64,000 nt of DNA from Candidatus Geocrenenecus huangii (GTDB lineage Archaea > Thermoproteota > Nitrososphaeria_A > Caldarchaeales > Wolframiiraptoraceae): NCBI GenBank assembly GCA_023254095.1, contig JALNLM010000001.1:1-64000 (forward strand), written 5' to 3'. The first letter of the stretch is position 1. Each line of letters starts with the position of its first letter. Of this stretch, positions 70 to 58,913 are shown piece after piece. Under the pieces are notes generated by a model that did no database searches, had not been told where the DNA came from, and saw only the letters and a list, made by a program, of their open reading frames with translations. Made by a program: the position numbers and the translations under genes.

Positions 70-220
70 CTACACTCGTATAGAAATTCCAAACTAAAAA
101 TTTTACAAGTCCTAACTCTTGGTAGGATGACATCCTTGTAACGTCTTTATATTATATATAATCTCGGCATAGAGAATGGTTAAGAGACGATTTATATAAT
201 TTTATTTGAGGTCGGCGTTA

Positions 221-778
221 TTGATCGAGATTAGATGGCATGGAAGAGGAGGTCAGGGAGTAGTAACAGTAAGCGATATCCTTGCCCGCTCCGCAGTGTT
301 GGAAGGAAAGTATGCTCAGCATTTCCCAGAGTTTGGACCTGAGAGATCTGGTGCTCCTGTAAAAGCCTTTACAAGAATCTCCGACGAACCTATTGAGATA
401 CATTCAGGCATCTACAATCCGGACGTAGTAATTATTATAGACAGAGGGATGTCTCAGAGGTTCCAGCCATACATCGATGGATTAAAAGGAAATGGAATGG
501 TATTCTTAAATCTAGGAGATGATGCCTCGCATATTGACAGGTCTACCCTTCCTCCGGCTGCGAAGGTATATACTGTTGATGCTAGAAAGATCTCAGTTGA
601 GGAAATTGGTAGACCAATATTCAATATCCCGATGTTGGGTGGTTTAGTTAGAGTATTAAAGATGCCTACCCTAAATATTGTCGAAGAAGTTTTGAGTGGA
701 AGATTTTCAGGAGAATTAGTTGAGGCAAATATCAAAATACTGCGCAGAGCATATAATGAGGTGAAAAACCTTGGTTGA
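221..778 (+). CDS. porC: Pyruvate/2-ketoisovalerate:ferredoxin oxidoreductase gamma subunit
   Basis: EIRWHGRGGQG, PEFGPERSGAPV and NIPMLG motifs. TTG start at 221 follows a GAGGT RBS. Confidence 0.93.
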   Translation: MIEIRWHGRGGQGVVTVSDILARSAVLEGKYAQHFPEFGPERSGAPVKAFTRISDEPIEIHSGIYNPDVVIIIDRGMSQRFQPYIDGLKGNGMVFLNLGDDASHIDRSTLPPAAKVYTVDARKISVEEIGRPIFNIPMLGGLVRVLKMPTLNIVEEVLSGRFSGELVEANIKILRRAYNEVKNLG

Positions 779-1073
779 TATAGATGTCAAAAAGATAGTT
801 GCAGGTGAGTTTTCATGGAAGACTTTACCTCCCGCCGGGATGATTGAGATCCCTACTTCCATAGAATACAAGACTGGAACTTGGAGAATAGAAAAACCAG
901 TCATAGACCAATCTAAATGCACAAAGTGTCTTATCTGCTGGATATATTGCCCAGACATGTCTATCAAAAGAATGTTCGACGGGGGAGTAGAGGTCGATTA
1001 TGAATTCTGCAAAGGATGTGGAATATGTGCTGAAGTCTGTCCGCAAAAAGCGATTAAGATGGTGGAAGAGTAG
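771..1073 (+). CDS. porD: 2-oxoacid:ferredoxin oxidoreductase delta subunit (2x[4Fe-4S])
   Basis: KTGTWR..P, CTKCLICWIYCPD and CKGCGICAEVCP motifs. Confidence 0.93.
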   Translation: MVDIDVKKIVAGEFSWKTLPPAGMIEIPTSIEYKTGTWRIEKPVIDQSKCTKCLICWIYCPDMSIKRMFDGGVEVDYEFCKGCGICAEVCPQKAIKMVEE

Positions 1074-1074
1074 C

Positions 1075-2271
1075 ATGAGCGAATTGAGACCTTTGAGGAA
1101 GATGGCTTTAACGGGTGATGAAGCAGTAGCATATGCTGCAAAACAGGCTGACGTTGACGTCGTTGCAGCATACCCTATAACGCCACAGACGATAATAGTC
1201 GAGAGGTTAAGCAGATATGTTGCAGACGGTGAATTAAATGCAGCGTTCATTCAAGCTGAAAGCGAGCATTCAGCTTTGTCGATCTGTATCGGTGCGGCAC
1301 TAGCTGGTGCTAGGACTTTTACCTCGACTGCTAGTCAAGGATTAGCTTTGATGCATGAAGTTCTACATATCGCCTCTTCTATGCGTACACCTATAGTCAT
1401 GGCCATAGCTAACCGTGCACTCAATTCTCCTCTCAACATACATTGCGATCACTCGGATGTGATGAATGCTAGGGATACGGGTTGGATTCACTTGTTTGCA
1501 AACAATGTACAGCAGGCATATGACCTAACTTTAATGGCGTTCAAGATAGCTGAAGACCCAGATCTCTTACTTCCAGTGTCAGTAAACATGGATGGGTTCA
1601 TCTTAACTCATAGTGTAGAGCCTTTAGAGATACTAAGTGATGAAGAAGTACGACAGTATATTCCTCATATACCATATCCGTACAGAATAGATTTTGACAG
1701 GCCATTGGCATACGGAGTTATGGCCCTCCCAGATACATATATGGAGTTTAGGAAACAACTTTTCGAGGTAACTAGGAAAGCTCCTCAAGTATTCAGAAAA
1801 GCCTCGAACATTTTCTCAGCAATATCTGGAAGATCCTACGACTTGTTAACCCCGTATTTCGTTGAGGATGCCGATGTAATAGTGATAGCGCTAGGTTCAA
1901 CGATCGAGACTCTAAGATACGCTGCTAGGAGATTTAGAGAGAGAAGACTGAAGATAGGTGTCGTCGGATTAACGATGTATAGACCCTTCCCCGAGAAAGA
2001 GATCGTAGATGTTCTAGAAAATGCTAGATGTATAGCGGTATTAGATAGAGCTTATTCGTATGGAGGTGTTGGAGGACCTCTATACACAGACATACTTTCA
2101 ACCCTCTACAAGAACCAGATCGGGGTTATGATTGCAGATTTCGTTTACGGGCTAGGTGGAAGAGATCTCAAGCTAACGGATATAGAACAACTCTTCAATA
2201 AGCTGTTCAAATCTCTAGAAGTAGGTCGATTCGACCAAGACATATACTGGTGGGGAGTGAAAGATGATTAG
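1075..2271 (+). CDS. porA: Pyruvate/2-ketoisovalerate:ferredoxin oxidoreductase alpha subunit
   Basis: AAYPITPQT, ESEHSA, TASQGLALM and YGLGGRD motifs. Start is the ATG at 1075, just after the porD stop. Confidence 0.95.
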   Translation: MSELRPLRKMALTGDEAVAYAAKQADVDVVAAYPITPQTIIVERLSRYVADGELNAAFIQAESEHSALSICIGAALAGARTFTSTASQGLALMHEVLHIASSMRTPIVMAIANRALNSPLNIHCDHSDVMNARDTGWIHLFANNVQQAYDLTLMAFKIAEDPDLLLPVSVNMDGFILTHSVEPLEILSDEEVRQYIPHIPYPYRIDFDRPLAYGVMALPDTYMEFRKQLFEVTRKAPQVFRKASNIFSAISGRSYDLLTPYFVEDADVIVIALGSTIETLRYAARRFRERRLKIGVVGLTMYRPFPEKEIVDVLENARCIAVLDRAYSYGGVGGPLYTDILSTLYKNQIGVMIADFVYGLGGRDLKLTDIEQLFNKLFKSLEVGRFDQDIYWWGVKDD

Positions 2272-2392
2272 AGATAGCTTTCAAGCTTTCCACATTTTAC
2301 CAAAATCTTCATACATGTTTTCACTCAGCGGAACTGAGGTGGCTAACAATTCCTATTCGGCAAAGAAGACGACCAACGTGAGGAGGGTGTAG
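2264..2392 (+). CDS. Possible 42-aa peptide filling the porA-porB gap
   Basis: ATG overlaps the porA 3' end behind GGGGAGTGA, and the stop lies 1 nt before the porB TTG. No recognisable homology. Confidence 0.3.
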   Translation: MIRDSFQAFHILPKSSYMFSLSGTEVANNSYSAKKTTNVRRV

Positions 2393-2393
2393 A

Positions 2394-3341
2394 TTGGCGG
2401 CTCAGGAGAAATATTTTAAAACTATAAAAGACGTACCACTCGAGGATTACTTTACACCAGGGCATAGGTTGTGCGCGGGATGTGGTCCTTCTCTAGCCAT
2501 GAAGCTTGCAATGAAAGCTGTCAGAATGCCTACAGCCATCGTCAATGCTACTGGATGCGTCGAAGTTTCCACATCCATGTTCCCTTACGTTAGCTGGAAG
2601 CTTCCATGGATACATGTTGCCTTCGAGAATACAGCCGCCGTCGCAAGCGGCATAACCGAGGCTTTTAGAATACTTGAGAAGAAGGGACGTGGAAGTATGC
2701 ATGATGTAATAGCCATTGCTGGTGATGGGGGAACATTCGATATAGGGTTACAAGCACTATCAGGAGCTCTTGAAAGACGACATAAGATGTTATACATCTG
2801 TTATGATAACGAAGCCTACATGAATACTGGAATACAAAGATCTGGAGCGACACCCATGGGCGCGGCCACTACGACCAGCCCTGTTGGAAAAGTAATTTCG
2901 GGAAAGCAAGAAAGGAAGAAAGACTTGATCGGAATAGTTGTGGCCCACAAGGTACCCTATGCTGCAACAGCCTCGATATCTCATCCTCTCGATTTCATAA
3001 ATAAGGTTAGGAAAGCTTTAGAGATAGAGGGTCCGACCTTCATACATGTCTTGACCCCGTGTACTCTTGGATGGAGATATCCACCTTCTCAAACTATAAA
3101 GATATCGAGGTTAGCTGTTGAGACAAGATACTTCCCGATATTCGAGCTAGAGTATGGTAAGCTGAAGATAAATATCAAAGTAAGTAAGCCTAGACCTCTA
3201 GAAGAATTCCTAGAAGCTCAAGGAAGATTCAAGCATCTCTTCGAACCAGCCAATAAAGATGTACTCGAGAATCTAAAGATGCAGGTAGAAGAAAACTGGA
3301 ATAGACTTCTCAAGCTTGAAGAAATAGGGTTATACGCTTGA
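2394..3341 (+). CDS. porB: Pyruvate/2-ketoisovalerate:ferredoxin oxidoreductase beta subunit (TPP-binding)
   Basis: GHRLCAGCG, GDGG...DIG and YDNEAYMNTGIQRS motifs. GGAGGG RBS upstream. Confidence 0.95.
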   Translation: MAAQEKYFKTIKDVPLEDYFTPGHRLCAGCGPSLAMKLAMKAVRMPTAIVNATGCVEVSTSMFPYVSWKLPWIHVAFENTAAVASGITEAFRILEKKGRGSMHDVIAIAGDGGTFDIGLQALSGALERRHKMLYICYDNEAYMNTGIQRSGATPMGAATTTSPVGKVISGKQERKKDLIGIVVAHKVPYAATASISHPLDFINKVRKALEIEGPTFIHVLTPCTLGWRYPPSQTIKISRLAVETRYFPIFELEYGKLKINIKVSKPRPLEEFLEAQGRFKHLFEPANKDVLENLKMQVEENWNRLLKLEEIGLYA

Positions 3342-3370: not shown

Positions 3371-4357
3371 CTAAATTATTTTTATTCCTGTGGTCGCTTG
3401 AATTCTATGCAGTATTGAGCTGGTCAATCTATCTTCTAGCTTAGACCTTATAACATTTAAAGATACTAGAATATTGTTTATCCTTTTTATGACTCTCTGC
3501 GGATACGGTATCGACCTGAATTCTATGTAGAGTTTCTCAAGGTCTCTCGATGTTAAAGTTCTATTGTAGAATGTATAGACGATCGCAGATAGCTGATTCA
3601 AGCTAGACTTATAACATGCATCATGTGAAGAATAGTTATACAAACATTTACCGCAATTAGAGGCTAGAAGTTCCCTCATCGGCCCCCTGCTGCTGATCCT
3701 AACGTGTTTTACAACCCTGACATAGTTTTCTTTCTTCAATCTTGATAACGCTTTATATAATGTGCTAGTACTGACTCCTTCTCTGATGATTCTTCTTGAG
3801 AGCTCCTCGACTGTTAAATCGCCATGAATACATAGACGATCAATTATTTTCTGTAGTAAGATAGGGGGTGTACTAGACATTTGCATGTCTAGTTTATTCG
3901 ACAACGATTCTAGAAGATTATCATGACTTATCGTAATGTCTATGCCGAGCTTTGCTAAACCTTTCTCATACTCTATGTTAAACTCTTTCATTAAGGTATG
4001 CTTGAGAGATTCTTGGTCCGAGGTTCTCATATAAGAATTTAGGAGAGCCCATAGAAGATATACTTCTTCATTCTTCCAAGACATTCTAATAATCCATGAG
4101 AACTTGATCAAAGCATCAATCATACTCAATCTCTCGATAACGAATACATCTTCTCTGAGCTTCTTCACGTAATTCTTATTATTTGATAATAACCTATTAA
4201 GTACCTGGATGCTTTTTTCATTCCAAGCTACGATTACTAAGTCTTGTCCATCAGGCTCCTCAACTATTGTGAATGGTGGATAGTTAATGAATACTTCTTC
4301 GACAAATTCGTTAGGCGTGAATTCCTTTACTAGTTGGAGTAGGTCGCCGTTTATCAT
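3371..4357 (-). CDS. Uncharacterised protein with an internal winged helix-turn-helix followed by a CxxC-x9-C motif; putative regulator
   Basis: 328-aa ORF. GDLTVEELSRR..STSTLYKALSRLKKENYV is HTH-like and is followed by CGKCLYNYSSHDAC. Divergent from the kor-hdr-etf operon. Confidence 0.7.
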   Translation of the reverse strand: MINGDLLQLVKEFTPNEFVEEVFINYPPFTIVEEPDGQDLVIVAWNEKSIQVLNRLLSNNKNYVKKLREDVFVIERLSMIDALIKFSWIIRMSWKNEEVYLLWALLNSYMRTSDQESLKHTLMKEFNIEYEKGLAKLGIDITISHDNLLESLSNKLDMQMSSTPPILLQKIIDRLCIHGDLTVEELSRRIIREGVSTSTLYKALSRLKKENYVRVVKHVRISSRGPMRELLASNCGKCLYNYSSHDACYKSSLNQLSAIVYTFYNRTLTSRDLEKLYIEFRSIPYPQRVIKRINNILVSLNVIRSKLEDRLTSSILHRIQATTGIKII

Positions 4358-4360: not shown

Positions 4361-4394
4361 GAAAATATTGGATTTTCGCAAATATTAGATTTTC
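4361..4394. promoter_or_regulatory. Two abutting 17-bp inverted repeats; candidate operator
   Basis: GAAAAT-attgg-ATTTTC (4361-4377) is immediately followed by GCAAAT-attag-ATTTTC (4378-4394), within the 89-bp divergent intergenic region. Confidence 0.55.
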
Positions 4395-4446: not shown

Positions 4447-4731
4447 ATGTCTTTAAAGATTATTAGAGAACCCATAAATAAATATATACAAAAAATCCCC
4501 CTTGGACTTATCCACGTTATCCCTGAAAGATGTAAAGAATGTGGTTACTGTATCGACTTATGCCCTAAAGATGTTTTAACCGTGAGCGAGGAAAGAAACA
4601 TAAAAGGTTACCGATGGCCAAAAATAGCAGACGGTAAGGCATCTGAATGTATTGCTTGTAGAATGTGTGAATGGATATGCCCTGAATTTGCCATATTCGT
4701 TGTAGAAGCTGATAGGAGGGAGTACGAGTAA
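4447..4731 (+). CDS. korD: 2-oxoglutarate-type oxidoreductase delta subunit (ferredoxin-like)
   Basis: CKECGYCIDLCP and CIACRMCEWICPEFAI motifs. Overlaps the korA start. Confidence 0.88.
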   Translation: MSLKIIREPINKYIQKIPLGLIHVIPERCKECGYCIDLCPKDVLTVSEERNIKGYRWPKIADGKASECIACRMCEWICPEFAIFVVEADRREYE

Positions 4732-5876
4732 TGTCTAGTGAACTCCGATTACTTAAGCCAGGAACATATTTCATGATGGGGAATATAGCTTGTGCTGAAG
4801 CAGCATTAATAGCTGGATGTGAATTCTATGCAGGCTACCCTATAACCCCATCAAATGAGATTGCTGAACATATGAGTAGAAGGATGCCTCAGCTTGGGAG
4901 ACACTTCATTCAGATGGAAGATGAGATAGGGAGTATCGTAGCTGTATTAGGTGCTTCCGCCGCAGGCGTGAAAGCTATGACGGCAACTTCCGGACCTGGA
5001 TTCTCACTCATGATGGAGACGATAGGTTTATCTGCGATGCTTGAGCTCCCGTGCGTTATAATTGATGTGCAGAGAGCTGGCCCAAGCACAGGCATCCCAA
5101 CCTTTGTAGGTCAAGGAGACGTAATGCAAGCAAGATGGGGGTCTCACGGAGACTATGAATTGGTAGTCTACGCTCCATCAGCTGTTCAAGAATTCTTCGA
5201 TCTCACAATTGAAGCATTCAACACATCTGAGTGGTTACGGATACCCGTGGTAGTATTGTCCGATGAAGTGGTAGGTCACATGTACGGGAGACTAGTAGTT
5301 CCGGAATACGATAAGATTAAGATCGTGAACAGAAAACGATACAATGGTCCCAAAGACCAATACCTACCTTATAGTTGTGAAGCCCTTGTCCCACCTTTTG
5401 TAGCAGCTGGAGATGGATATAGAATACACATGACCGGATTAACTCACGATGAAAGAGGTTATCCCTCTCTAGAGATTGAGGATTCTCATAAACTAATTGA
5501 TAGGCTCGTCATGAAAGTTAGAAAGAATTCTAAGCATCTATGGAAGTATGAGACCCTATATGCAGATGATGCAGACGTCGTCGTTGTAACCTTCGGTATC
5601 ACTGCGAGGTCTACTGAAGAGGCTGTAAAAAGAGCTAGGGCCGAAGGCCTGAAAGTCGGCATGATAAAGCTGCTCACCCTTTGGCCCTTCCCAGAAGATC
5701 CAGTCAAGATCGCGAGCCAGTATGCTAGAAGACTGCTCGTCGCAGAAATCAACATGGGTCAATTAATCCATCCGGTAAGAGAAGTAGCAGAATGCCCTGT
5801 AGCAGGAATAAATTATCCAGTAGGGTACGCACCCCCACCCGAGTATATTCTAGATGGTATCAGAGCGGCGGTGTAG
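4731..5876 (+). CDS. korA: 2-oxoacid (2-oxoglutarate-type):ferredoxin oxidoreductase alpha subunit
   Basis: YAGYPITPS, QMEDEI, TATSGPGFSLMME, QRAGPSTG and QARWGSHGD motifs. Confidence 0.93.
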   Translation: MSSELRLLKPGTYFMMGNIACAEAALIAGCEFYAGYPITPSNEIAEHMSRRMPQLGRHFIQMEDEIGSIVAVLGASAAGVKAMTATSGPGFSLMMETIGLSAMLELPCVIIDVQRAGPSTGIPTFVGQGDVMQARWGSHGDYELVVYAPSAVQEFFDLTIEAFNTSEWLRIPVVVLSDEVVGHMYGRLVVPEYDKIKIVNRKRYNGPKDQYLPYSCEALVPPFVAAGDGYRIHMTGLTHDERGYPSLEIEDSHKLIDRLVMKVRKNSKHLWKYETLYADDADVVVVTFGITARSTEEAVKRARAEGLKVGMIKLLTLWPFPEDPVKIASQYARRLLVAEINMGQLIHPVREVAECPVAGINYPVGYAPPPEYILDGIRAAV

Positions 5877-5881
5877 AGTGT

Positions 5882-6748
5882 ATGAGTCAGAAAGGGTTGG
5901 TAATTAAGGAAAAAATCGTCAGTGAGTCTCCAAGAGATCACTTGATAAGGAAGGAGAGATTCCCACATATATGGTGTCCTGGATGCGGTCTCGGAACAGT
6001 ATTGAAATGCTACGTAGAGGCAATAGCTGCATCAAGTATCCCGGAAGATAAACATGTAGTTATATCAGGCATAGGTTGCACTGGAAGAATAGCTGGTTAC
6101 GTCAGATTGGATTCATACCATGTAACACATGGAAGACCTATCGCTTTCGCTGAAGGAATGAAGATAGTTAGACCAGATCTCGAGGTAACGGTAATATCCG
6201 GAGATGGAGACTTAGTAACTATTGGCGGAAACCACTTTATCCACGCTATCAGGAGAAACGTGGACATAAATGTCTTCCTAGTCAACAACTTCATCTACGG
6301 TATGACTGGAAACCAGATGGGTTCAACTACTCCATTAGGTGCCAAAAGCTCCACGAGCCCATACGGTTGTCCAGAACCTCCATTCAACCTACCTTTGCTT
6401 GCAGCAGCCCTAGGAGCCCCCTTTGTAGCAAGATGGACTACACTCCATACTAGGCAACTTGCAGAGGCTATGAAGAAAGCATTCCAAGTTAAAGGATTCG
6501 CATTAATCGAGATAATATCTCCATGCCCAGTAGGGTTCGGATCATATAATGAATTAAGAGAGGGAAAAGATTACATAAAGCTTTTCCTAGAGAATTGCAT
6601 AGTTGATCATTCAGCCGATTTAAACAAGGCGGCCATATCGTTGAGGCCAGGTGAACCAATTATCCTTGGAAACTTCATTCAACGAGAAATGCCCAGTTAT
6701 CATGACTTTGAACTAGAAGTCTTCAAGAAGGCAGGGTGGTTAAAGTGA
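5882..6748 (+). CDS. korB: 2-oxoacid:ferredoxin oxidoreductase beta subunit
   Basis: WCPGCG, SGIGC, HGR, GDGD...IGGNH and NNFIYGMTG motifs. Likely start is the ATG at 5882. Confidence 0.93.
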   Translation: MSQKGLVIKEKIVSESPRDHLIRKERFPHIWCPGCGLGTVLKCYVEAIAASSIPEDKHVVISGIGCTGRIAGYVRLDSYHVTHGRPIAFAEGMKIVRPDLEVTVISGDGDLVTIGGNHFIHAIRRNVDINVFLVNNFIYGMTGNQMGSTTPLGAKSSTSPYGCPEPPFNLPLLAAALGAPFVARWTTLHTRQLAEAMKKAFQVKGFALIEIISPCPVGFGSYNELREGKDYIKLFLENCIVDHSADLNKAAISLRPGEPIILGNFIQREMPSYHDFELEVFKKAGWLK

Positions 6749-7278
6749 GATGGGATATAAGGTGGGCGGGTTTCGGAGGTCAAGGAGTAATTAGAGCAGG
6801 AGAAATCCTAGGTAGAGCCGCTGTTAAGCAAGGACTTGATTCCGCTATGAGACCAATGTATGGACCAGAGAAGACTGGGGGATGGTCTAGAGCAGATGTA
6901 GTTATTTCAGATGAACAAATTATCTTCCCCCTAATAGTCAATCCCGATATTCTTGTCGCGATGTCTCAAGACGGGATGAATAGAGATGGCTCATCACTAA
7001 AGAAAGACGGTCTACTCTTGATAGATGGAGAATTGGTAAAAGACGTCAAATGCTATCCTAAGAAGATATACTCTGTAGAAGCCACGAAGATAGCGGACAG
7101 TCTAGGTAGAAGAATAGTTGCGAATATTGTAATGCTCGGTGCATTCTCTAAAGCGTTCGGGATCGTTAGCGAGGATATCTTATTACAGACAATTATCGAG
7201 ACCTTCCCCAAAGCGGTTGAATTGAATAAGACAGCATTCAAGCTCGGTAAAGAGAATGTAAGGGAGGTGGAGATATAG
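6745..7278 (+). CDS. korC: 2-oxoacid:ferredoxin oxidoreductase gamma subunit
   Basis: GFGGQGV, YGPE..GG and ANIVMLGA motifs. GTGA overlap with the korB stop. Confidence 0.92.
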   Translation: MRWDIRWAGFGGQGVIRAGEILGRAAVKQGLDSAMRPMYGPEKTGGWSRADVVISDEQIIFPLIVNPDILVAMSQDGMNRDGSSLKKDGLLLIDGELVKDVKCYPKKIYSVEATKIADSLGRRIVANIVMLGAFSKAFGIVSEDILLQTIIETFPKAVELNKTAFKLGKENVREVEI

Positions 7279-10200
7279 ATGTCCGATGAAGTATTAGTTA
7301 TAGGCGGAGGAATAGCTGGAATACAATGTTCACTCGACCTAGCCAACGCAGGTGTAAAAGTGGTATTGGTTGAGAAGACCCCTACAATTGGAGGAAAGAT
7401 GGCGATACTTGACAAGAACTTCCCGACACTTGATTGCTCGATATGCATAGAGGCGCCGAAGATGAGCGAGGTAGGAAAACATCCAAACATCGAGCTGCTG
7501 ACCCTTGCGGAAGTTGTAAGCGTTGAGAAAAATGGGGAAGACTACTTAGTCGAGATATATCAAAAGCCTAGATACGTAACATCTGAATGTAGTAGATGCG
7601 GCCTCTGCGTAGATGCTTGCCCAGTCCTGCTCAAAAACGAATTTGACTATGGCATGGCTGCTAGAAAAGCAATCTATACACCGATTCCCCAATCTGAGCC
7701 GGGGGCATACGTAATAGATATCGAGAATTGTCTAAACAAGCCTCCCAACTACCTCCCCTGCGACAGATGCATACAGGTATGCGGGCCTAAGTGCATAGAT
7801 TTCTTCATGAAACCCAAGATAATAAAGAAGAAAGTTAAAGCGATAATCGTCGCAGCAGGATTCGAAGTATTCGACGCGACCGGGATACCCGACTATTCAT
7901 ACGGTCTCCATCCAGATATACTCAGCTCGATGGAATACGAGAGACTACTTCAGTCGACCGGTCCAAGCGGTGGAGAAATAATCAAACCTAGCAATGGACA
8001 TCATCCTGAAAACATATTATTCGTCCTATGTGTAGGTTCTAGAGACCCAAGATACAACAAGTATTGCTCAAGGTTCTGCTGCATGTATACCATTAAGCAA
8101 GCTGTCCAGACAGTTGAACATGGGATAAAGAATGTGGATATACTGTACATGGATATCAGAGCGTATGGCAAAGGCTTCGACGGATTTTACAAGAGAGCAA
8201 AAGATGAAGGCGTAAGATTCATAAAAGGAAGAGCTGCTAGAGTAATCCCTTACGAAAATAAGCTGAAAGTCAGGTATGAAAATATAGCTGAAGGAAGAAT
8301 AGAAGAAAGAGAATACGACATGGTTGTTCTAGCGGCGGCCGCCGAACCACCGGCAGGACTGGTTGAGCTGGCGAAAACTCTCGGAATAGAACTAGATGAA
8401 GATGGATTCATAAAGACGAGGCCGTGGCGTGGTAAAATGATAGCTACAACTAGAGAGGGAATCTTTGTATGTGGAAGCGCATCCGGTCCAAAGGATATTG
8501 CGGACAGCGTGACAGAGGCCGGAGCAGCAGCATCCGCTGCCCTAGAATATGTTAAGAAGAAGACTTGGCCTAAGCGAGAATTCGAAGAAACAATTCCCGC
8601 TGAGGGAGAACATAGAGTGGGGGTATTCATCTGTCACTGTGGATCGAATATTGCGGGAGTAGCAGACGTTAAGTGGCTAGCGCAGGAATCCGCGAAGATC
8701 CCTGGGGTAGTACATTCCGAAGATCTCAGATTTGCATGCGCGGGAGTCTACACAAAATATATTGAGCAGGTGATTAGGGAGAAGAACATCAACAGGCTTG
8801 TGGTGGCAGCGTGTTCTCCGAGGACGCATCTGCCTGTATTCATGGATGCAGCTATAAGAGCCGGTTTAAATCCATACCTGGTCGAGCTAACGAATATACG
8901 TAACTTAGATACTTGGGTTCACGCAAATTATCCGAAAGAAGCAACCGAGAAGGCTCTAGATATGATTAGGATGTCTGTAGCTAAAGCTAAGCTGCTTAAG
9001 CCTCTATATGTTGTTAAGCTCCCGGTAACTAGAAGAGCCTTAGTGATCGGTGGAGGAGTAGCGGGGATGGCTGCAGCAGCTAGCCTTGCTCGCCAAGGCT
9101 TTGAAACATATCTTGTAGAGAAGGAGAACCAGCTAGGCGGCCTCGTAAGACATCTTGACGTTATAGCTCCCGAGGGGATAAGAGCTGATGAATTATTAAA
9201 CGAGATGGAGAGAGAAGTATACAGTTCAGGTGTAAAGGTCATATTAGGAGCCAAGGTGGAATCTGTAGGCGGATACATTGGAAACTTCGTTGTAAACCTG
9301 TCTAGTGGAGAGAAACTTGAGGTTGGAGCAATCATCATGGCTACGGGTGCGAAAGTATACCATCCGGAGGGAGCCCTCCAGGCAAATGGAGGAAACATAA
9401 TAACCTCACTTGACCTAGAGCAGATATTCAAGAATAATGGTAACCTTGATGGGAGAAACGTCGTCTTCATAAGCTGTGTAGGGTCAAGATACGATTCGAA
9501 AGGCTGCTCTAGGTTCTGCTGCCAAGTAATGATAAAACAAGCAATCAGACTTAAAGAGCTGGGTAAGAACGTATTCGTACTCTATAAGGATATCAGGACA
9601 TACAGTCGGAAGGCTGAAGAATTATACGAGAAAGCAAGAGCGCTCGGAGTAAGATTCGTAAAATACGACTCTGAGAGGAAACCCGAAGAAGTAGTTAGAA
9701 TTGAGAATGGGACAGTATACGTTAAAGATGAATTGCTCGGAGAAGAAATCGGTATACCAGCCGACCTAGTAGTACTAAATGTCGGGCTCGTCCCAAATGA
9801 TGAGATAAATCCAATAATTGAACAGCTGAAGCTATCAAGAGACGAGGCGGGCTTCCTCCTCGAGCTCCATCCAAAGCTTGGACCGGTTGAGTCAATGGTT
9901 GGAGGGGTATTCCTCGCTGGGACATCCCAGAACCCGAAAGATGTCAGAGAAGCAATATCGCAGGGATTGGCGGCGGCCGCAAAGGCCGCAGCATTGCTAG
10001 CAAAAGACACTATCGATAAAGAACCCCTTATACCGAGGATAAACTATGATAAATGTACATACTGTCAAAGATGTACTCAGGTATGCACTTTCTCAGCTCT
10101 GAGGGGAGAACTGAAGAAGAGCCTTGAAATAATCAGTGCTTTATGTCAGGGATGCGGAAACTGTTCAGCTGAATGCATGGTTGGAGCGATCGAGGCTCCT

Positions 10201-10686
10201 GGATTCACCGATGAACAGATCATTACACAGATCGATGCGGCCCTAGAAGATAGACCGAACGAGAAGGCAATAGTGTTTACATGTAACTGGTGCTCGTATG
10301 CTGGTGCAGACCAAGCAGGTATAGAAAAGCTCCAGTACCCGCCAAGCTCAAGGGTAATTAGAACGATGTGTTCGGCCAGAATTTCGCAGAAATTCATCTT
10401 GAGGGCGTTTGAGAAGGGTGCGGCGGTAGTAGCTGTTACAGGATGTTGGCCGCAGGACTGTCACTACAATTACGCTAACCTGAATACTGAGAGGAGAGTC
10501 AAACAAGTGAAGAAGATACTCGAGGCTAGAGGAATTAATCCTGAGAGGTTGATACTACATTGGAATAGCGCAGCTGAGAGTAAGAGATGGGCCGCAAAGA
10601 TGAGGGAGATCGACGAGCTGATAAAGAAGATTCCAAAAGAAGAGATAGTCCAGACTGTACAGAAGCTTGGAGGTGGGAAGAAGTGA
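7279..10686 (+). CDS. hdrA: Heterodisulfide reductase HdrA-like flavoprotein with two FAD modules and a fused C-terminal MvhD [2Fe-2S] domain
   Basis: Two GGG(I/V)AG FAD motifs, KNFPTLDCSIC, two CVGSR...CSRFCC motifs, internal GVFICHCG..NI, ferredoxin motifs, and C-terminal CNWCSYAGAD...CSAR...GC...DCHY (MvhD). Confidence 0.92.
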   Translation: MSDEVLVIGGGIAGIQCSLDLANAGVKVVLVEKTPTIGGKMAILDKNFPTLDCSICIEAPKMSEVGKHPNIELLTLAEVVSVEKNGEDYLVEIYQKPRYVTSECSRCGLCVDACPVLLKNEFDYGMAARKAIYTPIPQSEPGAYVIDIENCLNKPPNYLPCDRCIQVCGPKCIDFFMKPKIIKKKVKAIIVAAGFEVFDATGIPDYSYGLHPDILSSMEYERLLQSTGPSGGEIIKPSNGHHPENILFVLCVGSRDPRYNKYCSRFCCMYTIKQAVQTVEHGIKNVDILYMDIRAYGKGFDGFYKRAKDEGVRFIKGRAARVIPYENKLKVRYENIAEGRIEEREYDMVVLAAAAEPPAGLVELAKTLGIELDEDGFIKTRPWRGKMIATTREGIFVCGSASGPKDIADSVTEAGAAASAALEYVKKKTWPKREFEETIPAEGEHRVGVFICHCGSNIAGVADVKWLAQESAKIPGVVHSEDLRFACAGVYTKYIEQVIREKNINRLVVAACSPRTHLPVFMDAAIRAGLNPYLVELTNIRNLDTWVHANYPKEATEKALDMIRMSVAKAKLLKPLYVVKLPVTRRALVIGGGVAGMAAAASLARQGFETYLVEKENQLGGLVRHLDVIAPEGIRADELLNEMEREVYSSGVKVILGAKVESVGGYIGNFVVNLSSGEKLEVGAIIMATGAKVYHPEGALQANGGNIITSLDLEQIFKNNGNLDGRNVVFISCVGSRYDSKGCSRFCCQVMIKQAIRLKELGKNVFVLYKDIRTYSRKAEELYEKARALGVRFVKYDSERKPEEVVRIENGTVYVKDELLGEEIGIPADLVVLNVGLVPNDEINPIIEQLKLSRDEAGFLLELHPKLGPVESMVGGVFLAGTSQNPKDVREAISQGLAAAAKAAALLAKDTIDKEPLIPRINYDKCTYCQRCTQVCTFSALRGELKKSLEIISALCQGCGNCSAECMVGAIEAPGFTDEQIITQIDAALEDRPNEKAIVFTCNWCSYAGADQAGIEKLQYPPSSRVIRTMCSARISQKFILRAFEKGAAVVAVTGCWPQDCHYNYANLNTERRVKQVKKILEARGINPERLILHWNSAAESKRWAAKMREIDELIKKIPKEEIVQTVQKLGGGKK

Positions 10687-11840
10687 TTAATACAAAAATC
10701 GTAGATATAGAGCTAATGGAGAAACTTGCTGAACTGACTTCTAGAGCAGCTGACTACTGTTATCAATGTGGAACGTGCACCGGCTCATGCCCACTCAACC
10801 TACTAAACCCAGAGTCAATCAATCCTAGAAGGATTGTTAGATCCGCCCAACTTGGACTAGTCTACGATGATGGAAATCTATGGCATTGCTCGACCTGCGG
10901 CCTCTGCGAGGCGAAGTGTCCATGGTCCATAAAGATCCCAGATGTAGTTAGAGCATATAGACAGATATCATCAGAGAAGAGAAAGATCCCACAAAAATTC
11001 GAGGAGATACTGTGGATGGTATATGAGGACGGTACAGCTTTCCCAGGCTCAAGTATGGAGAGAGCAGCATGGACGGAAGGACTAAACATAAGAGATGCAT
11101 CAAAACAAAAAGTCCAAGTATTACTATACGTTGGGTGCGCTGTCTCGTTTGACAAGAGGTTACAGAAGGTGGCCGCATCACTCGCTAAAGTTCTATCTAC
11201 CGCAGGAGTAGATTTCGGAGTACTGGGTAGACAGGAACGATGTTGTGGAGATGTTGTATACAACATCGGTGAAGACGCATTCCTGGAAGAGCTTGCATCT
11301 CAGAATATAGAGAGATTCAATAAGACGGGGGCTGAAGCCATTATCACGATCTCGCCTCATTCTGCACACATGTTTAAGAAAGTCTATCCCAGGTATGGAT
11401 TAAAGATACCGGCATATCACTACGTAGAGTTCCTGAATGACTTGATAGAAAAAGGAAAGATCAGAATGTCTAAACCCTTAGACCATGAAGTGACAGTTCA
11501 TGACCCATGCTATCTTGGGAGATACCTTAAGCTATATGAAGAGCCGAGAAAGATCCTGTCAAGTATCCCTGGGACAAAGATTATCGAGATGAACGATATC
11601 AAAGAGAATGCAATATGTTGTGGGAGTGGTGGCGGAAGACACTTCCTAGATATACATGGCGAAAGACTTTCCCACTATAGGGTTGCGCAAGCCGCCCAAA
11701 CAGGTGCGAAAACATTGGTAGCACCATGCCCATTCTGCATTCAGAACTTTGAAGACAGTGTGAAGACTAAGAAACTAGGATTATATGTTAGAGACGTAGT
11801 AGAATTGGTTGACCAATCATTGAATGGTGAGGTTAGATGA
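10683..11840 (+). CDS. HdrD/GlpC-like Fe-S oxidoreductase (2x[4Fe-4S] plus two CCG domains)
   Basis: CYQCGTCTGSCP, CSTCGLCEAKCP, YVGC, ERCCG, HDPCYLGR, CCGSGGG and CPFC motifs. GTG start overlaps the hdrA stop. Confidence 0.9.
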   Translation: MINTKIVDIELMEKLAELTSRAADYCYQCGTCTGSCPLNLLNPESINPRRIVRSAQLGLVYDDGNLWHCSTCGLCEAKCPWSIKIPDVVRAYRQISSEKRKIPQKFEEILWMVYEDGTAFPGSSMERAAWTEGLNIRDASKQKVQVLLYVGCAVSFDKRLQKVAASLAKVLSTAGVDFGVLGRQERCCGDVVYNIGEDAFLEELASQNIERFNKTGAEAIITISPHSAHMFKKVYPRYGLKIPAYHYVEFLNDLIEKGKIRMSKPLDHEVTVHDPCYLGRYLKLYEEPRKILSSIPGTKIIEMNDIKENAICCGSGGGRHFLDIHGERLSHYRVAQAAQTGAKTLVAPCPFCIQNFEDSVKTKKLGLYVRDVVELVDQSLNGEVR

Positions 11841-12820
11841 GCCAAGAATACAGAGGAGTATGGGTTTTCCTCGAGAGACGTGGGGATGAAGTGATCGAGC
11901 CTTCATTAGAAGTCCTCGGGAAGGCTCGTGAATTAGCAGATAGGTATGGAGACAATGTTGCTGGAGTATTGATGGGGGCAAAAAATCTCGAGATCCAAGC
12001 GGAGACAGCGATAAAATATGGAGCCGACGTAGTGTACATAGTAGAAGACCCCCTACTAGAAGATTACTCTACTATACCTTACTCTGAAGCATTATCTAGA
12101 CTGGTTAAGAAGTATAAACCGAACATCATGCTTTATCCCGCCACTAGGAATGGTAGAGACCTGGCTGGTAGAATATCAGCGAAACTAGGCCTAGGTCTAT
12201 CAGCCAACACCGTATGGCTCGACATAGTCGGCGACGGCGTACTACTTGCAGGTGTTCCAGGATTTGGAGGAGGAATAATGGCTGTCACGAAGTGTTTGAC
12301 TAAGCCTCAAATGTCCACTGTGAGACCTGGAGCATTCTCCAAGCCTCGGCTAAACCCTATGAGGGAGGGTAGGATAGAGAAAGTAGATGTTGGCAAGCTT
12401 CCGGATCCTCCAACCAAGACCATTGAAAAAGTGTTCTTTACAGTTGAAGATATTAGTAAAGCGGAAGCAATAGTGATCGCAGGAATAGGTGTCAGGGAAA
12501 ATATAGAAGCAGTCAAGAAGCTTTCAGAAAAAATGAATTGGGCCTTCGGAGCTACTAGACCTCTATCAGATGAAGGACTAGTGCCTAGAGACATATTCGT
12601 TGGAGCAACGGGCAAAGTAGTTAAACCCAAAATTGCATTAATAGTTGGAGCAAGCGGTGCAGCCCACTTCATATCCGGTGTTGCAGGAGCAGAAAAGATA
12701 ATCTCCATAAATATTGACCCAGAAGCACCCATCCACTCATACTCAGATTACTCTGTAGTTGGAGATGCATACAAGATTATTCCCAAGCTATTACAGAGGC
12801 TGGAGGCTGAGAGGAGATGA
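11837..12820 (+). CDS. etfA: Electron transfer flavoprotein alpha subunit
   Basis: GVWVFLE, GRDLAGR, PQMSTVRPG, GATRP and INIDPEAPI motifs. Confidence 0.92.
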   Translation: MSQEYRGVWVFLERRGDEVIEPSLEVLGKARELADRYGDNVAGVLMGAKNLEIQAETAIKYGADVVYIVEDPLLEDYSTIPYSEALSRLVKKYKPNIMLYPATRNGRDLAGRISAKLGLGLSANTVWLDIVGDGVLLAGVPGFGGGIMAVTKCLTKPQMSTVRPGAFSKPRLNPMREGRIEKVDVGKLPDPPTKTIEKVFFTVEDISKAEAIVIAGIGVRENIEAVKKLSEKMNWAFGATRPLSDEGLVPRDIFVGATGKVVKPKIALIVGASGAAHFISGVAGAEKIISINIDPEAPIHSYSDYSVVGDAYKIIPKLLQRLEAERR

Positions 12821-13608
12821 TGCATATAGTAGTCTGCATGAAAGTGACCCCTAAATCTGAGCAAGTAAAACTGGATCCGAACACTAAGACGATAATCAGA
12901 GAAGGCGTAGAAAATGAAATAAATCCGGCTGATAAGAACGCTCTAGAAGCGGCTCTCCAACTAAAAGACAAGCATGGCTGTAAAGTAACAGTGATAGGTA
13001 TGGGGCCCCCGATGTGGGAGCCGTACATGAAGCTAGCCGTAACAATGGGAGCTGACGACGCTATACTCATTTCTGACAGAGCATTCGCGGGAGCTGACAC
13101 TCTTGCCACGAGTAGAACACTCGCCGCAGCTATCAAGAAGCTGGGAGAGTATGACTTGATACTATGTGGAGAAGAATCTAGCGATGCTGGAACAGGCCAT
13201 GTACCTCCAAGCATAGCTGAATTCCTCAACATACCTCAGATAACCTTTGTAAACAATATCGAGATAATAGAGGGGAAAATTAGAGCTAAAAGAGTCCTAG
13301 AAGGTGGGTATGAAGTGCTGGAATGCGCTCCTCCAGTCCTACTCTCCGTCGAGTATGGATGCAATACTCCCAGGTTCCCTGATTTTAGAAGGAAGAGATG
13401 GGTGGATAAAGAATTTAAATTAAAGATCTGGAGCATAGGAGAACTCCAGTTAAGTAACGAAGAAGTAGGCTTGAAGGGTAGCAGAAGCATAGTAGAGGAA
13501 CTTAGAGAAATGAAGTTAGGTGAGAGGGCTAGGCAGAAGATATCTGGAACGGAAGATGAAATAGTGGAACAAATACTAAATATAATCCGCCCGTACATCA
13601 AGAAGTAG
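12817..13608 (+). CDS. etfB: Electron transfer flavoprotein beta subunit
   Basis: IVVCMK, INPADKNALEAAL, MGPP, MGAD..ILISDRAFAGADTLAT and NTPR motifs. Confidence 0.93.
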   Translation: MMHIVVCMKVTPKSEQVKLDPNTKTIIREGVENEINPADKNALEAALQLKDKHGCKVTVIGMGPPMWEPYMKLAVTMGADDAILISDRAFAGADTLATSRTLAAAIKKLGEYDLILCGEESSDAGTGHVPPSIAEFLNIPQITFVNNIEIIEGKIRAKRVLEGGYEVLECAPPVLLSVEYGCNTPRFPDFRRKRWVDKEFKLKIWSIGELQLSNEEVGLKGSRSIVEELREMKLGERARQKISGTEDEIVEQILNIIRPYIKK

Positions 13609-24282: not shown

Positions 24283-25788
24283 TCACTTGGATTCTTTCTG
24301 CTCTACCTCATTGATTAAGTAGTCTACGATTAGTCTTACCCCTACTCCTGTCGCTCCTTTAGGTATGTAGCTTTTAGATTCAGATGTTTCTTGTGTGTAT
24401 GCTGTTCCAGCTATGTCTAAATGTACCCACGCTGTTTCTCCAACAAACTCTGAAAGGAATGCTGCGGCCGTTATGGCACCTGCAGGTCTCCCTCCAACAT
24501 TCTTCAAATCTGCCACATCACTTCTCAATTGTTCTTTATATTGTTTCCAGAGTGGAAGCTGCCAAACTCTCTCACCCGTTCTCTCACCAGACCTCTTAAT
24601 CTTCTCAGCTATTTCTTGATTGTTCGTGAATAATCCAGATGCATGTGTTCCTAAAGCTATTATGCAGGCTCCGGTCAGCGTTGCCAAGTCTATTAATGCT
24701 TTTGGATTCTTCTCAACAGCATAGGATAATGCGTCGGCCAAGATAAGTCTGCCCTCCGCATCCGTACTTATAATCTCAGCCGATTTACCATTTCTAAATC
24801 TTATAATGTCTCCAGGTCTATAAGCTGTACCGCTCGGTAAGTTTTCTACGCATGGTATTAAACCGATAACCCTGATTGGAAGTCTTAATGACGCTAGGGC
24901 TTCAAGGACTCCTACGACCGCTGCGCCTCCTGCTTTATCGTACTTCATCTCCTCCATCTTCTCTGAAGGCTTGATGGATATTCCTCCACTATCGAATGTT
25001 ACGGCCTTGCCGACAATGATGTAGGGGCGATCGTTCCTCCCACCCGTCCCATCGTATTCAAGTTCTATCAGTACAGGTTTATGAATGCTGCCGCCTCCCA
25101 CCGCGAGTATACCCCCCATGGACATATCCTCTATCTCCTTAACCTGATATACTCTCACCTTGAATCCGGCTCTTCTCCCGATTTCGTAAACTATTTTCGC
25201 AAATTTTTCAGGGTAACAATCTATACTGGGCATATTCGTTAAATCTCTCGCAGTATAGACTCCTCTACATATCTTTCCAGCAACCTCGACCGATTTCTTA
25301 ACCTTGCTTAAACTTGATTCATCATTAACCAATAATGTTACGTGCTTTAGTTTCTGTTCTTTCTTCTCTGACCTGTATCTGTCAAATCTATACATGGATA
25401 ACTCTATTCCTTCTATAATCGATTCGGTTGTACTTTCCAAGTCGAAGACATCTGAAACTATCGGTGCGAAAGCCGTCTCAGACATCGACTCATCAATTCT
25501 TAATGCTGCTCTACCGTATGCTCTCCTAAAAGAGTCGAGTTCTAATTCATCTCTCTTACCCAGACCTGTCAAGACTATCCTCTCAGGTCCTCCTGGAACT
25601 ATAGTCGGGATAATGTAGACTTCTTCAAGCCTACCTTTGAAATCTCTTCCCGCTACTTTGCTGATTAGATCTTTAACGTTATCTGGGAGCTCTACAGCAG
25701 GCCTAGGCACATCCTCTTCATACATAGGTATAATGTGTACTCCTTCCTCTATCCCTATCTTTCCAACTTTAACATCGAACTTTATCAT
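24283..25788 (-). CDS. pepA: Leucyl aminopeptidase (M17)
   Basis: GKAVTFDSGG.SIK, MKYDK.G, TDAEGRLILAD, ATLTGA and HLDIAG motifs. Confidence 0.95.
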   Translation of the reverse strand: MIKFDVKVGKIGIEEGVHIIPMYEEDVPRPAVELPDNVKDLISKVAGRDFKGRLEEVYIIPTIVPGGPERIVLTGLGKRDELELDSFRRAYGRAALRIDESMSETAFAPIVSDVFDLESTTESIIEGIELSMYRFDRYRSEKKEQKLKHVTLLVNDESSLSKVKKSVEVAGKICRGVYTARDLTNMPSIDCYPEKFAKIVYEIGRRAGFKVRVYQVKEIEDMSMGGILAVGGGSIHKPVLIELEYDGTGGRNDRPYIIVGKAVTFDSGGISIKPSEKMEEMKYDKAGGAAVVGVLEALASLRLPIRVIGLIPCVENLPSGTAYRPGDIIRFRNGKSAEIISTDAEGRLILADALSYAVEKNPKALIDLATLTGACIIALGTHASGLFTNNQEIAEKIKRSGERTGERVWQLPLWKQYKEQLRSDVADLKNVGGRPAGAITAAAFLSEFVGETAWVHLDIAGTAYTQETSESKSYIPKGATGVGVRLIVDYLINEVEQKESK

Positions 25789-38874: not shown

Positions 38875-38992
38875 CCTAGAAATCTTATCCTTCCTTGGAA
38901 TATAAGCATTATTCGCTTTATCATAGACGGAATATTTCAGAGTGGCTAAATCGTGAAAAGTTAAATAAACTGTGAGAAAATATCTTAGTAAT

Positions 38993-39388
38993 ATGAGTGG
39001 TCTGACTTCTGTAAAGGTATCGGACATAATGAGTAAGTATATCCTAACGATCCCTCCAGATCTATCTCTGAAAGAAGTAGCAGAGAAGATGTTAGAGAAA
39101 AATGTGGGAAGCGCCATAGTGGTGGATGAATCTAGAAAGTGTTTAGGGATAATAACTGAGAGAGATTTTTTGAGATTGTTTAAAGAAGGAGTAAACCGTT
39201 TCAGTCCAGTTAAAGAACATATGAAGATAAATCCTATCATGATAAGAGAAGATAAAAGCCTAAATGAAGCAAGAAATATAATGATCACACATCAAATCAG
39301 GCACTTACCAGTAATAGATTACGATGAGCGCGTGGTTGGAATCCTATCTTTCAGAGATATCTTTGAGAGGATAGAAAAGATAATCTAG
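38993..39388 (+). CDS. Tandem CBS-domain protein
   Basis: VSDIM, VGSAIVVD...GIITERD and IRHLPV...VGILSFRDI motifs. Confidence 0.9.
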   Translation: MSGLTSVKVSDIMSKYILTIPPDLSLKEVAEKMLEKNVGSAIVVDESRKCLGIITERDFLRLFKEGVNRFSPVKEHMKINPIMIREDKSLNEARNIMITHQIRHLPVIDYDERVVGILSFRDIFERIEKII

Positions 39389-56403: not shown

Positions 56404-56407
56404 TCTT

Positions 56408-58867: not shown

Positions 58868-58913
58868 CATGCGTGGAAGGTACTATCAATAAAAAGATAC
58901 TTTTAAATCCCAA

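Follow-up and report, generated by a model that had tools for sequence, protein, structure and literature searches.

A conserved operon may wire a four-subunit 2-oxoacid:ferredoxin oxidoreductase to an HdrA-type flavin hub, an HdrD-like protein and EtfAB

The known partners of HdrA-type bifurcating cores are hydrogenase, formate dehydrogenase, Flx, MetFV and Bam. Here we describe a further possible partner set, found in a 64,000-nucleotide stretch of DNA (hereafter the window; positions 1 to 64,000 of contig JALNLM010000001.1, GenBank assembly GCA_023254095.1) from Candidatus Geocrenenecus huangii. At 4447-13608 on the forward strand, eight co-directional open reading frames (ORFs), korDABC-hdrA/mvhD-hdrD-like-etfA-etfB, bring together a 2-oxoacid:ferredoxin oxidoreductase (OFOR, here Kor), an HdrA/MvhD protein, an HdrD-like protein and an electron-transferring flavoprotein (ETF). 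Our preferred reading, to which we assign a probability of roughly 0.55, is that this operon encodes one soluble multi-enzyme complex, in which an HdrA-type flavin hub would hold Kor as its low-potential partner and the HdrD-like protein with EtfAB as its high-potential partner. What is new here is the partner set of an HdrA-type bifurcating complex (Kor, HdrD-like protein and EtfAB), of which we found no published description.

The nearest published account is that of the class II benzoyl-CoA reductase of Geobacter metallireducens, Bam[(BC)2DEFGHI]2, as given in the accessible part of a preprint (bioRxiv 10.64898/2026.04.10.717634). Its BamDEF-ETF core has a fused, permuted HdrA dimer with a Cys pair and an inserted ferredoxin in one unit, an MvhD-type adaptor, an HdrD/HdrBC-like subunit whose non-cubane site is disrupted from Cys to Ser and which gives high-potential electrons to a soluble ETF, and a low-potential enzyme docked by a ferredoxin-like subunit on the inserted ferredoxin domain; for each of these the operon has an apparent or predicted counterpart. 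The two differ in their low-potential modules, tungsten BamBC there and the thiamine pyrophosphate (TPP)-dependent OFOR KorDABC here, in the BamGHI input module, which has no equivalent in the operon, and in that the operon fuses MvhD to HdrA and encodes its own Etf, of bifurcating sequence type. Pfam and NCBIfam searches found no genes for a tungsten AOR-type BamB, for BamC or for BamGHI in the operon, the core of which, on this comparison, resembles BamDEF-ETF but is no member of the Bam family.

Other described systems share smaller parts of this arrangement. In the methanogen Fdh-Hdr-Fmd complex, Fmd is reportedly wired directly to HdrA, and HdrA2B2C2 of Methanosarcina acetivorans uses F420H2. 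The HdrA units, cluster ligands and CCMYxxK lysine of the methanogen MvhAGD-HdrABC and Fdh-Hdr(-Fmd) complexes (5ODC, 8RVU, 7BKB) align with those of the operon protein (HdrA E ~1e-183), whereas the operon lacks hydrogenase and formate dehydrogenase genes, has a fused protein with one degenerate CCG domain in place of HdrB and HdrC, and has fused HdrA protomers. HdrA2B2C2 (NF040770) likewise has an HdrA-MvhD fusion; the operon protein differs from it in being a double HdrA, and no hdrB2C2 pair accompanies it. Mycobacterial EtfD (9OJN) is like the HdrD-like protein in having two cubane clusters along with a pair of CCG domains of which one is altered, and in taking electrons from ETF, and unlike it in having five transmembrane helices and reducing menaquinone (PMC13083937, accessible part); the HdrD-like protein is soluble, 374-385 aa long and encoded beside HdrA. 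In the first CCG motif, EtfD has CT and keeps CxxC, whereas the HdrD-like protein keeps the CC pair and lacks CxxC. Bifurcating Etf complexes (Bcd-Etf 5OL2, CarCDE 6FAH, Ldh-Etf 7QH2, Etf 4KPU and FixAB-type 7KOE) are the closest sequence type for the operon Etf, although their partner is a flavin dehydrogenase rather than an Fe-S HdrD-like protein, they have Gly123 where the window has Ala, and the operon EtfA has no ferredoxin domain. A genetic link between a four-subunit Kor and HdrA has been described in reductive tricarboxylic acid cycle clusters of tubeworm symbionts and Thioflavicoccus, and direct electron delivery to the oxoglutarate enzyme was proposed for the tubeworm-symbiont clusters as a genomic hypothesis only; according to the part of that paper available (PMC6315080), these clusters differ in using FlxABCD as input and HdrBC with TfrAB on the high-potential side, and in lacking Etf, an HdrD-like protein and a fused HdrA dimer.

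Our literature search found no description of a kor-hdrA-hdrD-etfAB operon, within a reach that excluded supplements, where these genes may be listed; the accessible parts of PMC9723716, PMC8407382, PMC9246946, PMC12979851, PMC10547907, PMC2702500, PMC9012536 and PMC7382037 hold no account of it. As far as their accessible text goes, the benzoyl-CoA reductase preprint and the PMC6315080 proposal are the nearest to a prior characterization of the arrangement.

The source genome is that of a hot-spring archaeon, a 1.6-Mb, 96%-complete member of the Caldarchaeales (Aigarchaeota), and the operon is 92-93% identical to metagenome-assembled genomes labelled Candidatus Geocrenenecus. Features were named from the ORF list with Pfam and NCBIfam profile searches, and junctions were read directly from the sequence; both bear out the eight overlapping or abutting genes that the original prediction had named. 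The gene for KorD (4447-4731; 94 aa), a 2x[4Fe-4S] delta subunit with two Fer4 motifs, shares a TAATG with korA (4731-5876; alpha subunit, POR_N 1.8e-68 with PFOR_II). After 5 nt follows korB (5882-6748, its start taken as ATG 5882; TPP-binding beta subunit, TPP_enzyme_C 8.5e-32), which overlaps korC (6736 or 6745 to 7278; gamma subunit, POR 8.5e-36) by 4 or 13 nt according to the korC start used. The korC stop TAG is directly followed by the ATG of hdrA/mvhD (7279-10686; 1135 aa). The hdrD-like gene ends at 11840 and starts either at GTG 10683, overlapping hdrA/mvhD in a GTGA, or at ATG 10716, and both positions occur as starts in orthologues; a largest gap of 5 nt, as originally claimed, thus holds for the GTG start, while the ATG start leaves 29 nt. 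The genes etfA (11837-12820; 327 aa, ETF and ETF_alpha domains, no N-terminal ferredoxin domain) and etfB (12817-13608; 263 aa, with an SDAGT motif at nt 13180-13194) are each entered through an ATGA overlap. This arrangement is far beyond chance, and the identical order recurs in distant genomes.

The hub protein scores 1125.2 bits against NCBIfam NF040770 (HdrA2; cut-off 1100). Aligned with HdrA of 8RVU and 5ODC, its residues 2-378 correspond to HdrA 151-525 (flavin domain with inserted ferredoxin domain), residues 443-615 to HdrA 10-182 (N-terminal cluster domain and onset of a second flavin domain) and residues 832-991 to HdrA 497-655 (end of the flavin domain and C-terminal ferredoxin domain), and residues 996-1118 align with MvhD. 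Unit 1 (nt 7279-8568, residues 1-430) keeps Cys251, Cys263, Cys267, Cys268 and Lys273 in a CCMYxxK motif that aligns with CCMYAMK of 5ODC and is invariant in 13 orthologues. It also has an FAD motif, GGGIAG, at residue 9, the pair Cys53/Cys56 (DCSIC) and an inserted 2x[4Fe-4S] ferredoxin domain (nt 7576-7803, residues 100-175), and would hold the candidate bifurcating FAD. Lys273 is presumably the lysine that lies near flavin N5 in the Hdr structure. The accessible preprint text makes a general statement to this effect for the CCMYxxK lysine (bioRxiv 10.64898/2026.04.10.717634). An N-terminal-type HdrA domain (nt 8605-9003, residues 443-575, aligning with HdrA 10-150; Cys452, Cys454, Cys487 and Cys512) lies between the flavin units. 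Unit 2 (nt 9037-9993, residues 587-905) has GGGVAG at residue 591 and keeps Cys733, Cys743, Cys747 and Cys748, lacks the DCxxC pair and the inserted ferredoxin domain, and is 31% identical to unit 1 (internal BLAST, E 4e-27). Behind it come a C-terminal 2x[4Fe-4S] ferredoxin domain (nt 10036-10203, residues 920-975; Fer4_21, two CxxCxxCxxxC motifs) and the fused MvhD domain (nt 10261-10638, residues 995-1120; FlpD 1.7e-43). The latter has Cys1002, Cys1005, Cys1031, Cys1056 and Cys1061, and its matches to MvhD in 5ODC, 8RVU and 7BKB have E values from 1e-28 to 8e-32. All cluster ligands of the hub are invariant in the 13 orthologues, including the four Cys of the N-terminal-type domain and the five of MvhD, with the C-terminal ferredoxin domain and MvhD both conserved in intact form. 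By alignment, the hub is a fused, complementary HdrA dimer in which the inserted ferredoxin domain, the N-terminal cluster domain with its Cys197 ligand and the C-terminal ferredoxin domain all occur, divided between the two units. The fusion is in itself not new, since complementary fused HdrAs are known from ANME (anaerobic methanotrophic) archaea and Moorella (PMC9012536) and BamE is another (bioRxiv 10.64898/2026.04.10.717634), according to the parts of these sources at hand.

Several loci carry variants of this gene. The HdrA of L015 (also L019, an operon locus; genomes G006 and G007) holds a 533-aa intein (L015:10151-11749; LAGLIDADG_3 6.5e-18, Intein_splicing 7e-17), which interrupts the protein near residue 52, where the conserved DCSIC cysteine pair lies, giving a 1657-aa reading frame. 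In one Caldarchaeales lineage (L018:10001-13590 and G035:C29:15241-18830), HdrA is encoded in two frames that meet near the boundary of unit 1 and the N-terminal-type domain, the gene there being either naturally unfused or broken by a frameshift. An 11.7-kb single-cell contig (L009) has korC-hdrA at one end and etfB-tmk on the opposite strand at the other, and may stem from misassembly or from an inversion inside the operon.

The Kor module is complete by Pfam, with delta (two Fer4), alpha, beta (TPP) and gamma subunits. KorA passes NCBIfam PRK08659 (506.6 bits, cut-off 411), and the best substrate-specific models are 2-oxoglutarate equivalogues, all below cut-off (alpha 374.6/579, beta 218.4/364, delta 51.9/93). 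The eight Cys of KorD are invariant across 19 sequences. We modelled KorD with HdrA 1-440 and HdrA 905-1135 as three chains, each supplied as an alignment. The KorD-HdrA model scored 0.70, against 0.02 for the best of three controls; the mark is reached by 58 of 80 complexes of solved structure and by 2 of 110 mismatched pairs, these counts being approximate for our own alignments and a three-chain job; runs shared at least 62% of contacts, and the partner pLDDT (predicted local distance difference test) was at least 78. On the KorD side, the predicted contact involves the N-terminal arm (residues 5-18, nt 4459-4500) together with residues 69-76, the second cluster loop, and on HdrA residues 112-130 and 152-163, which are cluster loops of the inserted ferredoxin domain, and 201-240; the modelled interface thus takes in cluster-binding loops of both proteins. 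When HdrA 1-440 was replaced, the score fell to 0.00 with the C-terminal ferredoxin/MvhD piece still present. KorD gave no confident dock on that piece, a result that does not count against binding there. HdrA-linked KorDs carry R(E/K)P(I/L)N-like arms, and the arm is altered in two KorDs of genus g4 that lack HdrA; as a marker of HdrA linkage, this N-terminal motif proved too loose a pattern.

A paralogue in genome G176 (L083:3550-7230, a second cluster on C1) lends independent support to placing KorD on the low-potential arm of HdrA. In its 1226-aa product a KorD-like Fer4 domain, 41% identical to KorD 16-85, is fused N-terminally to a double HdrA-ferredoxin-MvhD protein; an HdrC-like protein of 102 aa follows, then two pieces of citrate synthase, 114 and 121 aa long, which may represent one broken gene, and a second four-subunit OFOR some 1.4 kb downstream. 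According to the available preprint text (bioRxiv 10.64898/2026.04.10.717634), low-potential electrons leave through the inserted ferredoxin domain in Hdr and Bam structures. By modelling, KorD is predicted to dock on the inserted ferredoxin domain of HdrA unit 1, that is, on the low-potential arm, rather than on MvhD.

These results bear on the wiring put forward in the original prediction, in which Kor and Etf form the input module and dock through MvhD. Kor, with Etf, would then replace MvhAG, Fdh or Flx on MvhD and a 2-oxoacid would be the donor for bifurcation, as the fusion of MvhD to HdrA, the absence of hydrogenase, Fdh and Flx genes from the operon, and the presumable delivery of single electrons by Kor through Fe-S clusters, like MvhAG, would allow. 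We consider this highly improbable: KorD was modelled on the inserted ferredoxin domain and scored 0.00 with the MvhD piece (a weak point, as a missing dock does not mean no binding), the KorD-like domain of the fused paralogue lies N-terminally beside unit 1 and not beside MvhD, and by textbook potentials a donor at about -500 mV needs no bifurcation to reduce ferredoxin. The HdrD-like protein and Etf, in turn, are better placed on the high-potential arm.

The reasons for that placement lie in the HdrD-like protein, an HdrC-type two-cubane part fused to an HdrB-type part. Among solved structures it is closest to EtfD (9OJN; PDB search, E 7.4e-45 over residues 38-350), ahead of HdrC (2.2e-19) and HdrB (4.7e-6). 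Both cubane motifs and the second CCG domain (nt 11508-11738) are intact. The first (nt 11136-11363) keeps C141, C176 and C177 and has lost both CxxC cysteines; the first of these is absent from 16 of 16 Caldarchaeales orthologues, and its position is Ser in all eight sequences compared (the window and seven operons outside the order). In contrast, the HdrB proteins of four Etf-less Kor-Hdr clusters and of the C20 set of the source genome keep these cysteines. Degenerate at this site, the protein does not qualify as a catalytic unit of HdrD or HdrBC type for heterodisulfide and is probably not a disulfide reductase. BamD shows a Cys-to-Ser change and binds ETF as its high-potential acceptor (bioRxiv 10.64898/2026.04.10.717634, accessible part). 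We place Etf on the high-potential arm because the HdrD-like protein is closest to EtfD and shares a degenerate CCG motif with BamD and EtfD; by homology, it would exchange electrons with the Etf of the operon, the genes of which directly follow hdrD-like in every operon examined.

The Etf itself is, by sequence, much closer to bifurcating than to canonical Etfs (EtfA E 2e-61 to 1e-49 versus 5e-24 to 2e-19; EtfB 4e-50 to 2e-38 versus 7e-21 to 8e-15). In EtfB, Gly123 (Acidaminococcus fermentans numbering; DGDT motif) is invariant in bifurcating Etfs and leaves room for the beta-FAD, according to the available part of PMC12630350. This position is Gly in seven of seven operons outside the Caldarchaeales, and a second FAD and an NADH site were likely ancestral in the operon Etf. 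Such features could also point to an Flx-Hdr-like complex, in which EtfAB would be the NADH-oxidizing input at the MvhD/C-terminal ferredoxin arm, HdrA the site of bifurcation, Kor the low-potential partner and the HdrD-like protein a disulfide-reducing enzyme. The affinity to NADH-using bifurcating Etfs, the key Gly outside the Caldarchaeales, the need of the MvhD arm for a partner, the full HdrC and HdrB of Etf-less relatives and the similar logic of the korABCD/flxABCD-hdrABC/tfrAB cluster proposed for tubeworm symbionts (PMC6315080, accessible part) all speak for it. Nonetheless, we regard it as quite unlikely: CCG-1 is degenerate in every Etf-linked HdrD-like protein examined, EtfD, the nearest solved relative, takes electrons from ETF, BamD with its likewise disrupted distal cluster is argued not to bind heterodisulfide (bioRxiv 10.64898/2026.04.10.717634, accessible part), and no gene for a thiol carrier lies within the operon.

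The linkage is not peculiar to this genome. Of 77 loci returned for the window HdrA protein, 16 carry the operon, 13 with all eight genes, two ending at a contig edge in etfA/etfB and one fragmentary. Operon-type HdrA, defined as at least 59% identity over near full length in whole-genome searches, occurs in 17 of 76 Caldarchaeales genomes from three families, namely all eight in the genus of the window and, more sporadically, members of five further genera; 15 of these 17 are also in our phylum sample, and in all 15 KorA lies within 3 kb on a shared contig. The complete eight-gene order is also found in three genomes of one genus of another Thermoproteota family (f25; G176, G215 and G256), two of them single contigs of about 2.4 Mb, in G399 (family f60), and in all three Anaerolineae loci fetched, where HdrA is 57% identical to that of the window; some carriers are single-contig, 99%-complete genomes. 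The bacterial operons came from a search with the HdrD-like protein, having been missed by the HdrA-based search, which returned single-HdrA relatives without kor and etf from Anaerolineae and Asgard archaea. In an unrooted tree of the first HdrA unit (52 rows from 90 matching loci, the kor-less set thinned to one in three), all 22 operon HdrAs and one paralogue form one clade with 100/100 support, in which the bacterial sequences nest among Caldarchaeales lineages; from this nesting we conclude that the operon has crossed domains. The neighbourhood and phylogeny checks thus favour the original suggestion of a possible new complex, in that the gene order is conserved as one unit across orders, phyla and domains and no published description was found, although its input wiring was not supported.

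Kor and HdrA are also linked in other settings. Of 401 Thermoproteota genomes, 87 have a KorA match (E 1e-90 or better), with a match to HdrA no more than 3 kb away in at least 28 of them. The linkage occurs in three separate HdrA clades and two gene orders: korDABC-hdrA/mvhD-hdrC-hdrB with complete CCG motifs (Bathyarchaeia, Geothermarchaeales, Geoarchaeota and other Thermoproteota), a GltD-like NAD(P)H flavoprotein fused to HdrC ahead of hdrA/mvhD-korDABC, and the eight-gene form with the fused HdrD-like protein and EtfAB. The Kor-HdrA pair is constant across these clusters and the module at the HdrC port varies. In two genomes (L084:2773-4206 of G273, and L085 of G408), a 477-aa fusion of an HdrC-like dicluster with a GltD/NfnB-like NAD(P)H flavoprotein lies directly 5' of hdrA/mvhD-korDABC.

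The source genome has other Hdr and Etf sets. As originally noted, mvhAG, hdrBC and fixCX genes are not in the window, and hydrogenase, fdh and flx genes are not in the operon; mvhAG and hdrBC occur elsewhere in the genome. Contig C20 has a canonical hdrC-hdrB-hdrA set. Contig C23 (G000:C23:140598-147926; L091:2598-9926, minus strand) encodes a QmoC-like protein (383 aa; NCBIfam qmoC 202 bits, cut-off 300), tandem HdrAs (432 and 649 aa), MvhD, MvhG and MvhA, an Hdr/Qmo-like set that is linked to hydrogenase and may be membrane-anchored. Because the genome holds these two other HdrA sets, the operon HdrA is a dedicated paralogue. There are three further Etf pairs, one of them canonical-looking and adjoining an acyl-CoA dehydrogenase and a 705-aa EtfD-like protein.

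The distribution data also speak to whether the eight genes encode separate, merely co-transcribed enzymes, that is, an ordinary Kor and a free-standing HdrA-HdrD-EtfAB that uses the ferredoxin Kor reduces, linked for co-regulation only. In genus g4 Kor stands without the module: two genomes examined (G057 and G059) keep orf328-korDABC, orf328 being the divergent neighbour of korD described below, and lack hdrA-hdrD-etfAB, which behaves as a unit lost or gained as a block, a pattern that can also be read in favour of a single complex. In G319 kor is alone, and KorD (94 aa) has no large extra domain. On the other side, the abutting gene order is conserved across archaea and bacteria, Kor and HdrA lie side by side in two gene orders and three HdrA clades, the KorD-HdrA model stands up to its controls, and a KorD-like domain is fused to HdrA in the paralogue. 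We therefore consider separate enzymes unlikely.

Several further points weigh against a single complex. The operon encodes no partner for the MvhD arm. As candidate partner, Mvh hydrogenase has a clear MvhA orthologue (that of C23, 57% identity) in one of five operon-bearing genomes, the search of the others with MvhA giving 32% identity, short pieces or nothing; F420 as a third substrate finds its ligase CofE in three of the five (G000, G030 and G017), CofE not being found in G176 and G399. Both candidates thus co-occur inconsistently with the operon. The Gly123 position of EtfB is Ala in the window (SDAGT versus DGDT) and Ala or Ser in 14 Caldarchaeales orthologues. The model contained no KorABC, although the contact-rich N-terminal arm of KorD might pack on KorA or KorB, and it may have passed for its likeness to solved contacts of ferredoxin-HdrA type. 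The Bam comparison rests on preprint text, with no Bam chain among the PDB matches. KorA is present in six of seven g4 genomes with an adjacent HdrA in G055 only, so Kor orthologues work without the module. In two RNA libraries from a close relative (95-99% alike), contigs cover parts of korA, korC, hdrA, hdrD, etfA and etfB; one bridges the hdrA/hdrD junction and another has just 30 letters on the hdrA side of korC/hdrA, which is weak evidence, as the contigs are short and DNA carry-over is possible.

If the eight genes do encode a single complex, its hub would consist of unit 1, with the candidate bifurcating FAD and the inserted ferredoxin domain, unit 2, with the N-terminal-type and C-terminal ferredoxin domains, and then MvhD. 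Kor would be wired through KorD to the inserted ferredoxin domain, in the position that BamBC has in class II benzoyl-CoA reductase, and the HdrD-like protein would exchange single electrons, in either direction, with the alpha-FAD of the EtfAB pair encoded in the operon, as BamD and EtfD do with ETF; the third arm, formed by the C-terminal ferredoxin domain and MvhD, would serve free ferredoxin or another carrier. Textbook potentials of about -500 mV for Kor and no lower than -320 mV for ETF/NAD(H) bracket a mid-potential carrier such as ferredoxin. The net chemistry would then be a reversible coupling of the 2-oxoacid/acyl-CoA + CO2 couple (about -500 mV), ETF and the mid-potential carrier, with NAD(H) at the Etf beta-site probably joining the ETF pool. 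In one direction, half of the electrons would be driven onto Kor and used to make 2-oxoacids, the rest dropping to ETF; in the other, low-potential electrons from Kor would be merged with ETF or NADH electrons. Either version, a 2-oxoacid synthase that bifurcates or a 2-oxoacid/NADH oxidase that confurcates, is feasible, so the catabolic role in the original prediction is not readable from the sequence and the reductive direction fits equally well.

A bolder version, which we hold tentatively and think rather doubtful, sees in the operon a novel class of supercomplex for flavin-based electron bifurcation and would place two bifurcation-type flavins, Etf beta-FAD and HdrA FAD, in series to a TPP enzyme within a mobile eight-gene unit that passed between archaea and bacteria. 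NADH, alone or together with ferredoxin, would then drive reductive carboxylation of acyl-CoA to a 2-oxoacid without a free pool of low-potential ferredoxin, and in reverse 2-oxoacid oxidation would lift NADH or ETF electrons to the ferredoxin level. Should the single-complex reading be true, a TPP enzyme that makes or breaks carbon-carbon bonds would join the partners of HdrA cores, with a bearing on 2-oxoacid synthesis where ferredoxin pools are weakly reducing and on how fermenters rid themselves of electrons at the ETF and NADH levels. The operon has a wide distribution, occurring in Caldarchaeales, other Thermoproteota and Anaerolineae.

Upstream of korD lies an 89-nt divergent intergenic region, followed by orf328 (3371-4357, minus strand; 328 aa), a candidate regulator. 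By tblastn, orf328 stands beside korD in 14 of 16 Caldarchaeales loci (24-73% identity); it also occurs in loci that keep kor without hdrA-hdrD-etfAB, and it travels with korDABC rather than with hdrA. Its profile matches are weak winged-helix ones only (GntR E 0.0036, TrmB E 0.0065), with none in NCBIfam. The intergenic region contains two direct 15-nt repeats, 17 nt apart (4363-4394, forward strand), a putative operator, possibly; close relatives (L004, L005 and L007) have one exact copy at the orthologous site, and the repeat count across the window is not above chance (19 of 100 shuffles reach two matches). Just upstream of the operon, beyond orf328, a second four-subunit OFOR (206-3341), whose gamma, delta, alpha and beta subunits share 27-37% identity with those of Kor, is kept beside the operon in most Caldarchaeales loci and in two of three Anaerolineae loci (L097 and L099). 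On the other side, a thymidylate kinase gene begins 44 nt downstream of etfB and is conserved there in close relatives only.

Elsewhere in the window, the Liv transporter, PepA and FNR genes that had been reported correspond to a Liv-type ABC transporter (55330-60420), an M17 aminopeptidase (24283-25788, minus strand) and a GltD-like flavoprotein (37864-39288, minus strand). A 479-aa frame at 43422-44861 encodes a pyridoxal phosphate-dependent enzyme (PALP 2.9e-62) that ends in a PadR-type DNA-binding domain (4.9e-11).

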